IMG/VR virus record: IMGVR_UViG_3300005529_000066
Span: 1 to 40,123 of that record
Reading direction: 5' to 3' (one strand)
DNA from: a virus
Length of the DNA stretch: 40,123 bases
The notes below the pieces were generated by a model. The model saw only the letters and a list, made by a program, of their open reading frames with translations, did no database searches and was not told where the DNA came from. Position numbers and translations under genes: made by a program. Shown here one piece after another: positions 3,109-37,419 of the stretch (the stretch's first letter is position 1; every line of letters starts with the position of its first letter).

Positions 3109-3316
3109 CCTTGTTGTAACCGAAGGTATCTCGGGAACATGGTTCTATCACCTGTCCCACAACGCGCCGAAGCCGCAACAGCAGAGCGCCCTTTGCGGTG
3201 CGCGCGTGATGCACACGAACATGCCGCGCGACGCTTGGGGCACCGTGACCCATATCGGCGAACGCTGGTGCAAAAAATGCGAAGCGCTAGCACAATCGGG
3301 AGAGCCCCGTGAGTGA
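3101..3316 (+). CDS. Hypothetical protein, 71 aa (alternative GTG start 3086)
   Basis: ATG 3101 overlaps the upstream stop (ATGAATGA). CKKC pair near the C-terminus. Confidence 0.5.
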   Translation: MNDLVVTEGISGTWFYHLSHNAPKPQQQSALCGARVMHTNMPRDAWGTVTHIGERWCKKCEALAQSGEPRE

Positions 3317-3623
3317 CGCAGAAATGACTGATCCGAAAACCTGTAGTCCCCAGGCATGGAGCATCGCCAGCTTGTACAGCTCTGTACTCGGCGACTCTCA
3401 AGCGCGCGGCCTGGCTGAGTACATTGATGCCGCGCTCTCCGGCCTGCGCGCCGAGAATGAGCGGCTGACGGCAGCGCTCAAGAGTGCGAGCGCGCAGTGC
3501 GGAAACGTCATCTTCAATTGCGAGCAGCGGCCCGCGGACAATGCCCGGCACCTCTCATCGTGGCGCGGCGTCAAGGAATTCTGCGACGCGACCCTAAGCA
3601 TTCATGAGCGGGAATCGAAGTGA
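3309..3623 (+). CDS. Hypothetical protein, 104 aa
   Basis: GTG 3309 overlaps the end of the upstream gene. The central region looks coiled-coil. The stop overlaps the next GTG start. Confidence 0.5.
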   Translation: MSDAEMTDPKTCSPQAWSIASLYSSVLGDSQARGLAEYIDAALSGLRAENERLTAALKSASAQCGNVIFNCEQRPADNARHLSSWRGVKEFCDATLSIHERESK

Positions 3624-4391: not shown

Positions 4392-4672
4392 CCCCCGCCG
4401 CGCTCGAGCGCGAGAAGCCGCTCGCCAAGGACAAGCTATACGTCACCGACGCCGAGCTGATCCGGCTCATCGGAGCCCCGCGCGAGAAGACCCGAAAGAT
4501 GATCAACGCCTTGGACGCTATGCCGAATAGCGGCTTCCCGAAGAAAAACAAAATGTGGGGGGACAGAAGGCATTGGCCCTCTGTCAAAGCCTACTTTGAG
4601 CGCATGGAACAGCGTAGAATGGCGTCCTCATCCAATCAGCGGGGATCCCATGGCAGGCATGCCGAAGTTTGA
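4388..4672 (+). CDS. Putative excisionase / recombination directionality factor, 94 aa
   Basis: ATGA overlap with the upstream gene. It lies immediately 5' of int and overlaps its start. DKLYVTDAELIRLIG... looks like a DNA-binding helix. The call rests on position only. Confidence 0.4.
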   Translation: MTPAALEREKPLAKDKLYVTDAELIRLIGAPREKTRKMINALDAMPNSGFPKKNKMWGDRRHWPSVKAYFERMEQRRMASSSNQRGSHGRHAEV

Positions 4673-5876
4673 GAATGCGCCGGGGCTGAAGGTGCGCGCG
4701 AGCCGCACCGGAACGTTCGTCGCCTATTGGCTGGCGCGCGCGGACTGTGTCAAGCAGGGCTACAAGATGAAGTATTTCCCGCTCTGGAAGGGTGTTGATC
4801 CGACTCCAGAGGAGCGGCTGACCGTCTCCGAGGCGTGCGAGTCCCTACAGTACGAAATGCTCGCCTGGGCCGCTGGCGGCATCGACGGCGCATCGCACTT
4901 CAATGGAAGCGTGAGCAGCCTGATCTTCTGCTACACGCACGACAAGGACTCGCCGTTCAAGAAGCTGCGCTTCAAGTCGCGCAAGAACTACGCCGAATTC
5001 ATGAAGCGGATCGAGGCCGATCACGGCGACGAGTTCATCGCAAACCTCAAGGCGCGGGACATGCTGCGCTGGCACGCGGCATGGAAAGAGCGCGGCGTGA
5101 CGATGGCGCACTCACTGATGCGCATGTTTCGCGGGCTGCTGAGCTTCGGCATGACGATCCTCGATGACGAGCACTGCACGCACCTCTCAACGGTTCTCGG
5201 CAAGATGCGGTTCGAGATGGGCAAGCCGCGCACCGAGCGGCTGACCGCCGAGATGGCGAACGCCGTCCGAGCGCTCGCACACCAGAAGGGCTTGCACTCG
5301 ATCGCGCTCGCTCAGGCGTTCCAGTTTGAGGGGATGCTACGGCAGAAAGACGTGATTGGGAGCTGGGAGCCACTGACCGAGCCTGGCCCGTCTTTCGCGA
5401 CCTACCGAGACATGAAGTGGCATCGCGGCCTGCTGTGGTCCGAGATCGATGACAACCTGATCCTTCGCCACGTCACCAGCAAGCGGCAGAAGCCGATTGA
5501 GATCGACCTGAAGCTTGCGCCTATGGTGATCGAGGAATTCGACCGCATCCGCTCCGAGCTCGGCGCGCTCCCGAAGTTCGGACCAGTCGTGGTCTACGAG
5601 AGCACCGGCCGCCCCTACTCCGAGGAATACTTCCGCCAGTTCTGGCGCGAGATCGCGGACGAGTGCGGCATCCCCAAGACCGTGCGCAATCAGGACAGCC
5701 GAGCCGGCGCAATCAGCGAGGCGACCGATGCCGGCGTTCCGCTCGAGCACATCCGCCACGCGGCGACACACTCCGACATCGCGACCACGCAACGCTACTC
5801 GCGCGGCTCAGCGGAGAAGACCGCGACCGTGCTGACGATGCGCGCGGCGCACCGGAACAAAGGGGGAAACCAGTGA
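4650..5876 (+). CDS. int: Tyrosine recombinase / phage integrase
   Basis: C-terminal catalytic region RNQDSRAGAISEATDAGVPLEHIRHAATHSDIATTQRYSR (R...HxxR...Y signature). The start is ambiguous: TTG 4596, ATG 4650 or ATG 4659. Confidence 0.9.
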   Translation: MAGMPKFENAPGLKVRASRTGTFVAYWLARADCVKQGYKMKYFPLWKGVDPTPEERLTVSEACESLQYEMLAWAAGGIDGASHFNGSVSSLIFCYTHDKDSPFKKLRFKSRKNYAEFMKRIEADHGDEFIANLKARDMLRWHAAWKERGVTMAHSLMRMFRGLLSFGMTILDDEHCTHLSTVLGKMRFEMGKPRTERLTAEMANAVRALAHQKGLHSIALAQAFQFEGMLRQKDVIGSWEPLTEPGPSFATYRDMKWHRGLLWSEIDDNLILRHVTSKRQKPIEIDLKLAPMVIEEFDRIRSELGALPKFGPVVVYESTGRPYSEEYFRQFWREIADECGIPKTVRNQDSRAGAISEATDAGVPLEHIRHAATHSDIATTQRYSRGSAEKTATVLTMRAAHRNKGGNQ

Positions 5877-32770: not shown

Positions 32771-33473
32771 CACACCACCCCCAGGAATCCGTACCCAGGC
32801 CGCGGCGCGTGACACTCCGGACAGAACCACCGCCCGCCGAGCGCCCACCTCTGGAAATGCCACCCGCGACGCACCGGCAGCCCAGCCCGAAACCGCGCCG
32901 ATACCGCCCCGAAAACACGATCCAACAAAGTCGGGCAAAATCGCGCCGAACAGCGCGCACAGCGGACTTGTGTGCCAACCTCAAACACAGACCAAGCCCC
33001 TGACAGACATCATATTTTTTTCTGGGGTGGGGGCCGTGGGGGGCGCCTTTCTCACTGCCTTGAGGACCCATCGGCTGAGCGCGCCCGCGCGCGCCGTGGG
33101 GCCAATCGGGGACCATTGTGGAAAAACCGTATTAATGTCAGAGGGTTGCCTGTGTCTACTAACACCTTGGTTCATCGTGCGGCGGCGCAGCAAATACGCT
33201 TGCGCCTGGCTATCCGATCGCAAAGCCATTGAAATCATTGGGTTTCCGGTTAAGAGCCTGTTAACCGCCCATGAGCAGGAGATCCGATGGGGGCTTAGTC
33301 GGCCGGTCAGGGGCTGGTCCGCCCCGCTTCTGACACCCGCGTTGTTGGCCTGCTCGGTTGGCTGCCTTGTGCTTGTCGTCCGCTCTATGGCGGACTGGAT
33401 TGAGCGGCCAGAGGTGCGCGGGGAACGGCTTGTGAGGGAGCCGCGCGCGAGGAGGCGGTGCTGATTGTGCGAT

Positions 33474-33536
33474 GTCAATGCACTGATCCATGATGCTGTT
33501 ATCATTGGCGTATCGACGATTTTCCGATCAGTGCAT
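33474..33536. repeat. Inverted pair of the promoter-box sequence (ATGCACTGATC ... GATCAGTGCAT), 37-nt spacer
   Basis: 33478-33488 and 33526-33536 are exact reverse complements. The left copy continues as TTGACA on the minus strand, but no -10 follows it. Confidence 0.85.
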
Positions 33537-33541
33537 GTAAC

Positions 33542-33550
33542 ATTATAACA
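33542..33550 (-). promoter_or_regulatory. Extended -10 promoter element (TGTTATAAT) facing the late region
   Basis: The minus strand reads TGtTATAAT, a perfect -10 with the TGn extension, just upstream of the inverted pair. No convincing -35. Confidence 0.4.
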
Positions 33551-33575
33551 TACCATTCATTCGTACACGAACGAT

Positions 33576-33794
33576 CTATGCCTCGCTCTCGGTGATGAAG
33601 GCGTGCAGGTCGCGTGCGAGCTTAACGAGGTCGTCGCCGTGGCAGTTGAGGCTCGCGGCGGCCTGGATTGCCTTCTCGACTGCGTAGGTACGTGTCGCGC
33701 GATCGGCGGCCTTGACCTGCTGCTGCTGCACGGTGGTGATGCGTTGGTCTGCTGCCTCGAGGGCGGCCTGCTGTTCTACTTCGGTCAGCGCCAT
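33576..33794 (-). CDS. Hypothetical coiled-coil protein, 72 aa
   Basis: RBS AGGAGG upstream of ATG 33794. The track start at 33866 overlaps the upstream gene. Confidence 0.6.
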   Translation of the reverse strand: MALTEVEQQAALEAADQRITTVQQQQVKAADRATRTYAVEKAIQAAASLNCHGDDLVKLARDLHAFITESEA

Positions 33795-35819: not shown

Positions 35820-36089
35820 TCATTTCCGCACAGGCCGCCGCGAGCGGATGATGATCCGCTGCATCTCGACGTAGACGATCGGGTCGGCGTCGGACTCGTG
35901 CGCGAGCCATCGTCGCGCGGTGCGCACATCGCATCCCGCAATCGCGGCGATTTCGGCGTCGGTGTTGACCGGCCAGATGACTTTGCAGACCGGCCCGAAG
36001 AGCGGGCGGACAATTTCGTCCTCCCCAGGGCGGAAGCGTCCGCCGATTTCGTTGGCGACAAACTCGGAATTCCCGAATGGTGCACGCAT
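35820..36089 (-). CDS. Small HTH DNA-binding protein, 89 aa
   Basis: RBS AGGGGGA. TDAEIAAIAGCDVRTARRWL helix-turn-helix-like segment. Confidence 0.55.
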   Translation of the reverse strand: MRAPFGNSEFVANEIGGRFRPGEDEIVRPLFGPVCKVIWPVNTDAEIAAIAGCDVRTARRWLAHESDADPIVYVEMQRIIIRSRRPVRK

Positions 36090-36200
36090 GAACAGTCCCC
36101 CTGATCACTCACGCGACGCGACAACACGCTCGCGTACAAACTCGCGATGAACATGCGCCCGCTCATGCGGAACCCCGTTGCAACCGAAGGTCGATTACAG

Positions 36201-36214
36201 GTAGGGTGCAAGGA
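36201..36214 (+). repeat. 14-nt motif GTAGGGTGCAAGGA covering the RBS/start of the 37-aa peptide gene (copy 1)
   Basis: Recurs with a 1-nt deletion at 36382-36394. Both copies are preceded by TTAC(N)CAG. Confidence 0.7.
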
Positions 36215-36327
36215 TGAGGATATTCGTGGGCACGACGCTGCTGATCGCTGTGCTGGTCGGGGCGGCGGTGTTCTTCACCCGCAACACGCCGCCCGCGATT
36301 GTCGACGTGGCTCCCATCCGGCGCTAA
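36214..36327 (+). CDS. 37-aa single-TM hydrophobic peptide (MRIFVGTTLLIAVLVGAAVFFTRNTPPAIVDVAPIRR)
   Basis: ATG 36214 to TAA 36325-36327. 33 of 37 codons end in G/C. Antisense to the surrounding minus-strand early operon. Below the track threshold. Confidence 0.5.
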   Translation: MRIFVGTTLLIAVLVGAAVFFTRNTPPAIVDVAPIRR

Positions 36328-36381
36328 CCCTGTTAATTGCGGGGACAACCGACCATTCACGCTTGATTGATGCTTACCGCA

Positions 36382-36394
36382 GTAGGGTGCAGGA
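36382..36394 (+). repeat. Copy 2 of the motif (GTAGGGTGCAGGA)
   Basis: Direct comparison with 36201-36214. Confidence 0.7.
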
Positions 36395-36599
36395 CCTTGA
36401 GTCGTTTCTCGGTCCCTTGTGGCAACCCAACCCAACCTATGGGATTTTCCCGATTGTTCCGACCTCAAGTTGCGCGGAACCAACATACAACGTGAGTTAT
36501 TTTGCCTATTGGATAGGCGCAGACGAGGCCCGTAAGCTACCGGCGGGGCGAGGAAAACAGCCGGGGCAATCAAATGGGCAAGGTTCTGCCGTTCCGCCG

Positions 36600-36812
36600 T
36601 CATGCGCGCGCCTCAGCGGCGAGCTCGGCCAACGTCTCGAGCCGAATATCCACACCCTTAGCGGCGGCGATCCGGATCAGCGCAGACCAATGCGGAGCCG
36701 GAATGCCGTTCGGCCGCGTGCGCCATCCGCTGACCGTCGAGAGCGACAGTGAGAGCGCGTCCGCAACTTCGCCGGTGCCGCCGAGGGCGTCGATGATCGA
36801 GCCTGGGGTCAT
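36600..36812 (-). CDS. Cro/YdaS-like HTH regulator, 70 aa
   Basis: GGTGEVADALSLSLSTVSGWRTRPNGIPAPHW is the typical Cro/YdaS-type HTH. ATG 36812 was chosen because the track start at 36833 lies inside the promoter. The ATG is 8 nt after the -10, so the mRNA is probably leaderless. Confidence 0.75.
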   Translation of the reverse strand: MTPGSIIDALGGTGEVADALSLSLSTVSGWRTRPNGIPAPHWSALIRIAAAKGVDIRLETLAELAAEARA

Positions 36813-36820
36813 AGCGCCGC

Positions 36821-36849
36821 TTAATATTCGCACCGTGCGAATAAGTCAA
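36821..36849 (-). promoter_or_regulatory. Early-left promoter with operator O1 in the spacer
   Basis: The minus strand reads TTGACT (36849-36844) - 17 nt - TATTAA (36826-36821). The spacer holds the palindrome ATTCGCACCGTGCGAAT (36826-36842). Confidence 0.65.
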
Positions 36850-36903
36850 GCTGTCGCAAATCGCGAAACGACTTTCCCGGTCGACCGTGGTGCAATCTGG
36901 CCC

Positions 36904-37167
36904 ATGGTGGATTCCCCGAAAGTGATCGGGCCGCGGCTCAAGGAGCTGCGCATCGCGCTCGGCTTCAAGCGGCAACTCCACTTTGCGCGCGAAATCGGCA
37001 TCGAGCCGCAAACCTACAATCCTTGGGAAAAAGGCAAGCGCCCCCTCACCTTTGAGGGCGCCTGCCTGATCCGCAAGAAGTTCCGCGTGCCGCTCGACTA
37101 CCTGTTTTTTGGCGATGTCGGCGAGCTTCCAGTGCGGTTGCACCGCAAGCTCGAGAAGGCCGCATGA
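36904..37167 (+). CDS. XRE-family HTH repressor (CI-like), 87 aa
   Basis: IGPRLKELRIALGFKRQLHFAREIGIEPQTYNPWEKGKRPLTFEGACLIRKKFRVPLDYLFFG is a classic HTH_XRE. Divergent from the Cro-like gene. No SD; TGCAAT lies 7 nt upstream of the ATG. Confidence 0.85.
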   Translation: MVDSPKVIGPRLKELRIALGFKRQLHFAREIGIEPQTYNPWEKGKRPLTFEGACLIRKKFRVPLDYLFFGDVGELPVRLHRKLEKAA

Positions 37168-37364: not shown

Positions 37365-37385
37365 AAATTCGCACCGCGCGAATTT
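37365..37385. promoter_or_regulatory. Operator O2
   Basis: AAATTCGCACCGCGCGAATTT contains ATTCGCA-N3-CGCGAAT, a variant of the O1/O3 palindrome. Confidence 0.6.
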
Positions 37386-37390
37386 AGTTG

Positions 37391-37419
37391 TTGACTTATT
37401 CGCAAGGTGCGAATTATAT
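37391..37419 (+). promoter_or_regulatory. Early-right promoter with operator O3 in the spacer
   Basis: TTGACT (37391-37396) - 17 nt - TTATAT (37414-37419). The spacer holds ATTCGCAAGGTGCGAAT (37398-37414). Same architecture as the early-left promoter. Confidence 0.65.

Follow-up and report, generated by a model that had tools for sequence, protein, structure and literature searches.

A reversed 37-codon open reading frame, probably a small membrane-peptide gene, in the variable slot after the cro-like gene of a temperate soil phage

We found that the gap behind the cro-like gene in the window (i.e., the whole 40,123-nt stretch of phage DNA analyzed here) holds a 37-codon open reading frame (ORF) on the (+) strand, which is probably a genuine small membrane-peptide gene. 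The ORF has coding-type statistics, specifies a peptide of membrane character, runs against the surrounding leftward operon, and lies in a slot whose content varies among related phages; no homologue of it was found. Our leading, though tentative, interpretation is that it is an orphan accessory gene of the moron type, reversed in the variable slot after cro, that encodes a single-pass inner-membrane micro-protein. An earlier note on this DNA had drawn attention to the ORF together with a short repeat and two hairpins, and among these elements the ORF alone exceeds chance. The coordinates of all features are collected in Table 1.

The phage is a temperate soil phage. Besides a Rad52/Erf recombinase and an integrase, it has a repressor of the XRE type, for which there are three operators. 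Its sole integrase candidate, located at 4596–5876 on the (+) strand, scored 26–27 bits against the Pfam Phage_integrase model (cut-off, 27.1) and is a divergent tyrosine recombinase. In the 40,142-base contig, the first 40 and the last 40 bases fall in the same GGCTACGGCGAC-type Gly-Tyr repeat, so the contig is probably a circularly closed phage genome that was broken within this repeat and is essentially whole.

The leftward genes follow the order cro-like gene, gap, 89-aa gene, GcrA, RusA, and eventually the packaging genes; the first four of these genes are on the (−) strand. The gap of ~510 nt between two minus-strand genes, as previously described, corresponds to positions 36090–36599. 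A small lipoprotein gene and the XRE repressor gene sit between operator-bearing promoters, with operator O1 and the leftward promoter (9/12 match) together occupying 36821–36849. A scan of the gap itself revealed no operator, no late-promoter box, and no promoter-like site on the (−) strand. Since an operator and a promoter are found only upstream of cro and none in the gap, the lytic transcript must cross the 37-codon ORF in the antisense direction, which bears out the earlier claim that the early-left transcript runs antisense through it.

Table 1. Positions of the features in and around the gap after the cro-like gene (window coordinates)
Feature	Position	Strand	Remarks
89-aa gene after the gap	35820–36089	−	L014 and L008 have a homologue in the same place
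Stop-free partner frame	36105–36752	+	Codon position 1 on the same column as that of the 146-codon (−) frame
146-codon stop-free frame	36163–36603	−	ATG in overlap (ATGA) with the stop codon of the cro-like gene; crosses the 37-codon ORF on the opposite strand; 74 nt between its end and the next gene
Weak promoter-like site, TTGCAA-N18-TAGGGT	36178–36207	+	7/12 match; candidate only
40-codon ORF	36195–36317	−	Third codon positions shared with the (+) ORF
First motif copy	36201–36214	+	Holds the candidate −10 element and the badly spaced AAGGA; repeat at chance level
37-codon ORF (P0001)	36214–36327	+	ATG 36214, TAA 36325–36327; single-pass membrane micro-protein (predicted)
Alternative start, GTG	36226	+	33 aa; GAGGA (36216–36220) 5 nt upstream, properly spaced
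Second motif copy	36382–36394	+	No usable −35 element upstream; no function indicated
G-run (36561–36564) and ATG 36574, opening a 197-codon ORF	36561–37167	+	Reads the cro-like gene in antisense and continues in frame into the XRE repressor
cro-like (YdaS-type) HTH gene	36600–36833	−	First leftward early gene; likely start ATG 36812; Pfam YdaS (E = 2e-4), phrog_8008 (E = 2.6e-7); alignment with six relatives
Operator O1, ATTCGCA-N3-TGCGAAT	36826–36842		Inside the leftward early promoter
XRE repressor gene	36904–37167	+	
Operators O2 and O3	37367–37383, 37398–37414		

Further analysis of the ORF, which is present with the start, stop, and 37-codon length given previously, confirmed by recount that 33 of its 37 codons end in G or C (GC3 = 0.89); the GC content by codon position is 0.62/0.49/0.89. 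The predicted peptide has a single stretch of strong hydrophobicity (Kyte-Doolittle mean over 18 residues, 2.56), in agreement with the single helix described earlier. Using a codon log-likelihood model trained on the long genes of the same phage, we obtained a score of +13 bits for the ORF, i.e., 0.35 per codon, compared with 0.14–0.45 for the flanking genes. Among 3,000 Markov-simulated 510-nt gaps, one reached 13 bits or more, and none paired such a score with a membrane-type stretch. Across all six frames of the 40-kb window, no other ORF of 29 to 80 aa has both a membrane-type stretch and gene-like codon usage, and a public gene-calling pipeline also calls the 37-codon ORF, as a singleton cluster. 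The remainder of the gap displayed no period-3 signal. A small membrane-peptide gene, as the earlier note had proposed, is the likeliest reading of the segment.

The expression signals around the ORF are less clear-cut. The AAGGA that had been taken as its ribosome-binding site touches the ATG with zero spacing and would be a mis-spaced Shine-Dalgarno sequence, while the properly spaced GAGGA would serve the alternative GTG start. As for transcription, the −10 element of the weak promoter-like site ends 7 nt before the A of the ATG, which fits a leaderless transcript. This site is the only TTG-anchored candidate in the gap on either strand, the two operator-bound early promoters each scoring 9/12, and a stricter promoter scan of the gap returned nothing. 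An 8-bp palindrome, GTTGCAAC, overlaps the site, but it occurs once and is uninformative.

Because the 40-codon ORF on the (−) strand shares its third codon positions with the 37-codon ORF, we considered whether the real product is encoded there, pointing in the direction of the operon. Its statistics nearly equal those of the (+) ORF (GC3 = 0.85; codon score, 0.30 per codon), and the (+) frame is ahead of it by only 2.7 bits (a likelihood ratio of ~3), a margin that is this small in only 4% of true-gene windows. However, GC1 is lower than GC2 in the (−) frame, the opposite of real genes; the frame has neither a ribosome site nor a family match; and its Ser/Thr/Ala-rich composition is what the antisense of a hydrophobic helix is expected to yield, as is likewise seen opposite the micro-ORF of the related phage L013 (see below). 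A minus-strand product is therefore very improbable in our view, and the combination of GC1 exceeding GC2 in the (+) frame with the 3:1 likelihood ratio favors the (+) strand.

We next compared the slot among relatives, i.e., phages with homologous pairs of XRE and cro-like genes. The distance from the cro-like gene to the next gene is 31, 97, 142, and 286 nt in L011, L016, L008, and L014, respectively, whereas long gaps, ranging from 499 to ~940 nt, occur in the window, L013, L020, L035, and L032. The window thus contains extra DNA between genes that are adjacent or close together in related phages. The long gaps usually hold one reversed ORF with a positive codon score. Specifically, the reversed ORF is 37 aa in the window (gap of 510 nt) and 29 aa in L013 (499 nt), both of the membrane type, with that of L013 matched in 0 of 3,000 simulations; it is 101 aa in L020 (835 nt), 69 aa in L035 (about 650 nt), and 27 aa in L032 (about 940 nt), the last being a weaker candidate. 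The membrane micro-ORFs of the window and L013 share position and character but no sequence similarity.

The 101-aa ORF of L020 has a 71%-identical homologue; of the codon changes that separate the two, 32 are synonymous and 29 non-synonymous. Six contigs carry the exact L020 protein. The pattern of codon changes indicates that this reversed ORF is under purifying selection and, together with the six contigs, argues that reversed small genes in the slot are real in at least one relative. Two further features of these slots deserve mention. In L035, a more distant relative, the reversed ORF in the cro slot (3139–3348, (−) strand; 53–69 aa) is strongly codon-biased, with a GC3 of 0.94, and is not hydrophobic. 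L020 (~1400–1470) and L028 (~290–360) share an inverted repeat, GACCCGGCAGG ... CCTGCCGGGTC, that is rich in GC and has a T-rich run behind it; it lies upstream of their reversed 101-aa gene and is kept, although the overall identity of these two relatives is only 60%.

Homology searches with the 37-aa peptide recovered nothing beyond the peptide itself. A phmmer search of 1.84 billion representative proteins returned P0001 alone, exact look-ups revealed a singleton cluster and no second contig, a degenerate DNA pattern for the helix had no match in viral contigs, and tblastn on the host genome yielded noise only. The gap itself had no DNA relatives in 61 related genomes or in the phage collection. 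Comparison of the peptide with Pfam and NCBIfam (E up to 10), PADLOC (E up to 1), and PHROGs revealed no match to a toxin or defense family. With neither a homologue nor related DNA, conservation of the ORF cannot be shown; the check suggested earlier, for conservation of the ORF in related phages, came out negative, as neither the ORF nor the motif is kept in any relative. Searches with the surrounding genes were similarly sparse. The 89-aa protein had three weak matches in 401 genomes of the family and none in viral contigs, and its match in metagenomes was rejected as a false positive belonging to a phenylacetate operon. GcrA as a neighbor-gene query and neighbor-gene scans of genome contigs gave no matches, and XRE relatives in another family were without a cro-like gene.

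Taken as an accessory gene, the 37-codon ORF interrupts a repressor-controlled leftward operon in reverse, a layout that corresponds to a "non-contiguous operon". We infer that its transcription would depend entirely on a weak promoter of its own, probably a leaderless one, and would take place when the leftward operon is shut, i.e., in the lysogen or during the establishment of lysogeny. Once the operon is switched on, the gene would be damped both by convergent transcription and by the lytic RNA, which is complementary to it throughout and seemingly is kept translated across the gap. Acting in the membrane, the peptide could serve in superinfection exclusion, in abortive infection, or as a toxin-like effector.

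The closest parallel in layout is taiEcA of coliphage phi80 (He et al. 2024, PMC11364771), likewise a gene of opposite orientation that interrupts a lytic operon; the prophage expresses it, and driving the operon reduces its level. Phi80 Tai differs in being a 26-kDa soluble defense protein that is encoded in a Q-dependent late operon and has a partner counter-defense gene, whereas the window has a 37-aa membrane peptide in an early operon beside cro, with no partner identified. Morons, the lysogenic-conversion cassettes of temperate phages (PMC3594210), including those for membrane exclusion proteins of the HK97 gp15 type, resemble the present case in being extra small membrane-protein genes between genes that are adjacent in relatives, and expression in the lysogen, as for morons, is plausible for the 37-codon gene. 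Classical morons, however, come with a recognizable promoter as well as a terminator, and their base composition often deviates, while the window offers a weak promoter, no terminator, and phage-like codon usage. If real, the gene adds one more orphan membrane micro-protein to the mostly unstudied accessory genes of prophages and would provide a clean alphaproteobacterial case of a gene lying in reverse within an early lytic operon.

The earlier note had gone further and proposed a layout like that of type I toxin-antitoxin modules. Read in this way, the peptide would act as a toxin in the membrane, and its mRNA would be paired, at the ribosome site and start, by an RNA transcribed from around the second motif copy. 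The motif does cover the start region of the ORF and does recur downstream as described, with GTAGGGTGCA present at 36201–36210 and again at 36382–36391. This direct repeat is the best self-alignment in the gap, yet 7 of 60 dinucleotide shuffles matched or exceeded it, and it is one of five similar short repeats there; the duplication is at chance level. The pairing it offers extends over 10 continuous nt, or 13–15 nt with one or two bulges, whereas pairing in ZorO-OrzO, the trans-acting case that has been studied best, requires 15 continuous or 17 discontinuous nt, and 12 fail (PMC3919570).

Both hairpins noted previously exist, GCCTAT-TGG-ATAGGC exactly at 36504–36518 and GGACC-N14-GGTCC at 36392–36415, one base away from the position originally given. 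RNA folding of the gap was no more stable than that of shuffled sequences on either strand (z = +0.8 and +0.6), and the gap contained no Rfam family, no tRNA, no terminator, and no small-RNA gene that we could find. The vicinity of the second copy, specifically, lacks a minus-strand promoter, a terminator, a stable fold, and an Rfam match; the peptide falls outside known toxin families such as Hok, Ldr, Ibs, TisB, Fst, and TxpA; and the motif was not found in relatives.

Type I toxins typically are small and have one hydrophobic helix, as the peptide does, and type I modules do occur in prophages, e.g., hokW-sokW of Sp5 (PMC8621323), yonT/SR6 of SPbeta (PMC5848175), and zorO-orzO (PMC3919570), which share with the window a short one-helix peptide, a prophage location, and an antisense overlap. 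Unlike these loci, the window shows neither a recognizable discrete antitoxin RNA gene nor toxin-family homology, its repeat would pair over 10 nt, short of the working range, and the locus is not conserved. Given a repeat at chance level, no stable fold, and no toxin family, what is left to the type I proposal is the size and hydrophobicity of the peptide, and we consider such a module highly unlikely. If the ORF is an accessory gene, as we tentatively prefer, the 13-nt repeat and the hairpins are incidental, and no dedicated antitoxin RNA would be involved.

The right-hand part of the gap carries a conserved feature of a different kind. In six phages (the window, L029, L030, L031, L032, and L035), a G-run precedes a conserved ATG by 4–8 nt, and the N-terminal motif that follows is conserved. 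This ATG lies 26–38 nt past the cro stop and opens ORFs of 197–240 aa that share third codon positions with cro. A conserved ribosome site and ATG past cro imply that RNA of the (+) strand covers the right-hand side of the gap, and the conserved start suggests an establishment transcript like that from lambda P_RE, from which the 197–240-codon ORF may be translated as an extended form of the repressor. No shared promoter motif was found upstream of the conserved ATG. The long repressor itself is unproven, since the extension has no domain match, the Met that begins the short repressor is conserved as well, and L011 has no extension. Should the conserved start hold, together with the stop-free frames described below, the two arms of the genetic switch would be coded on opposite strands of the same DNA.

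This raises the possibility that the plus-strand unit is chiefly a P_RE/OOP-like transcript that starts beside the post-cro gene, runs antisense through cro, and yields the N-terminally extended repressor, with the 37-codon ORF as its first cistron or a passenger. In lambda, the order is repressor, cro, gap, next gene, with P_RE and OOP, and the order in the window is the same. In the six phages, the ATG behind the G-run shares the frame of the repressor across the entire antisense of cro; the gap has a single promoter-like site on the (+) strand, just upstream of the 37-codon ORF; and no terminator intervenes between that ORF and cro. On the other hand, the conserved ATG lacks a conserved upstream promoter motif, the extension has a composition like that of an antisense shadow in addition to matching no domain, the start of the short repressor is equally conserved while L011 does without the extension, and the strong codon bias of the 37-codon ORF is left unexplained. 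The lambda OOP RNA and the P_RE transcript (and likewise sar of P22) resemble the window in forming a plus-strand unit just beyond cro that is aimed back through cro to the repressor; they differ in being non-coding or leader RNAs with defined promoters and, for OOP, a terminator, whereas in the window a codon-biased ORF comes first and no terminator was seen. On balance, we regard a unit that serves chiefly in this way as improbable.

The accessory gene that we tentatively favor also shares its DNA with a long frame on the other strand. The 146-codon (−) frame that overlaps the cro stop was rejected as an ordinary gene, as it scored −0.55 bits per codon with a GC3 of 0.55, its codon and amino-acid usage is random-like, and its counterparts in other phages cannot be aligned. 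The same (−) frame is nevertheless free of stops in L013, L014, L020, L008, and L016, while the other four frames in the gap, i.e., those besides this frame and its (+) partner, contain stops at the random rate. In Markov simulations of four long gaps, the probabilities of a stop-free (−) frame were 0.021, 0.051, 0.090, and 0.0011, and those of a stop-free (+) frame in the same four gaps were 0.014, 0.015, 0.052, and 0.0012. Neither frame displays period-3 composition or codon bias, both have random-like amino-acid usage, and neither can be aligned between phages. Among newly fetched relatives, the frame is stop-free in L035 (218 codons, to the start of the next gene) and L031 (372 codons), but L036 shows the pattern only in part, and it breaks down in L032. 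In more distant phages, the genes ATGA-coupled to cro are ordinary ones.

The stop-free (−) frame, coupled to cro and spanning the whole gap on the same DNA, bears on whether the 37-codon ORF functions at all. The ORF could be a recent remnant, or a chance product within a long leader whose only importance lies in its RNA or in its being a translated spacer of the leftward operon. Consistent with this, the peptide is an orphan, the ORF has no convincing promoter, Shine-Dalgarno sequence, or terminator, its sense-over-antisense margin is atypically small, and relatives manage without it. However, its codon score and GC3 lie far beyond those of simulated non-coding sequence, the period-3 signal is absent from the rest of the gap, and the ORF is unique of its kind in the window; moreover, comparable reversed ORFs with coding-like statistics occupy the same slot in L013, L020, and L035, one of them under purifying selection. 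We therefore judge a non-functional ORF to be unlikely, although it is an alternative to be taken seriously, and retain the accessory gene as the preferred, if tentative, reading.

What keeps the long frames open is a separate matter. Ribosomes are able, as a general principle, to shield long leaders from Rho, and shielding of this kind is our working idea for the stop-free frames. In its fullest form, which we hold to be rather improbable, the post-cro gap would be a spacer translated both ways, in which selection keeps one frame per strand free of stops without constraint on the protein. Ribosomes would then escort, and shield from Rho, both the leftward lytic RNA, through its ATGA coupling to cro, and a rightward establishment-type RNA that leads from the reversed micro-gene into the extended repressor antisense to cro. 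If the stop-free frames and the conserved start hold, the phage would be using translation without protein-level constraint, with long leaders readable in both directions. Elsewhere in the window, a gene-less region upstream of terL (32939–33578, (−) strand) holds a stop-free frame of 191 codons, and another minus-strand frame of that region contains 11 stops.
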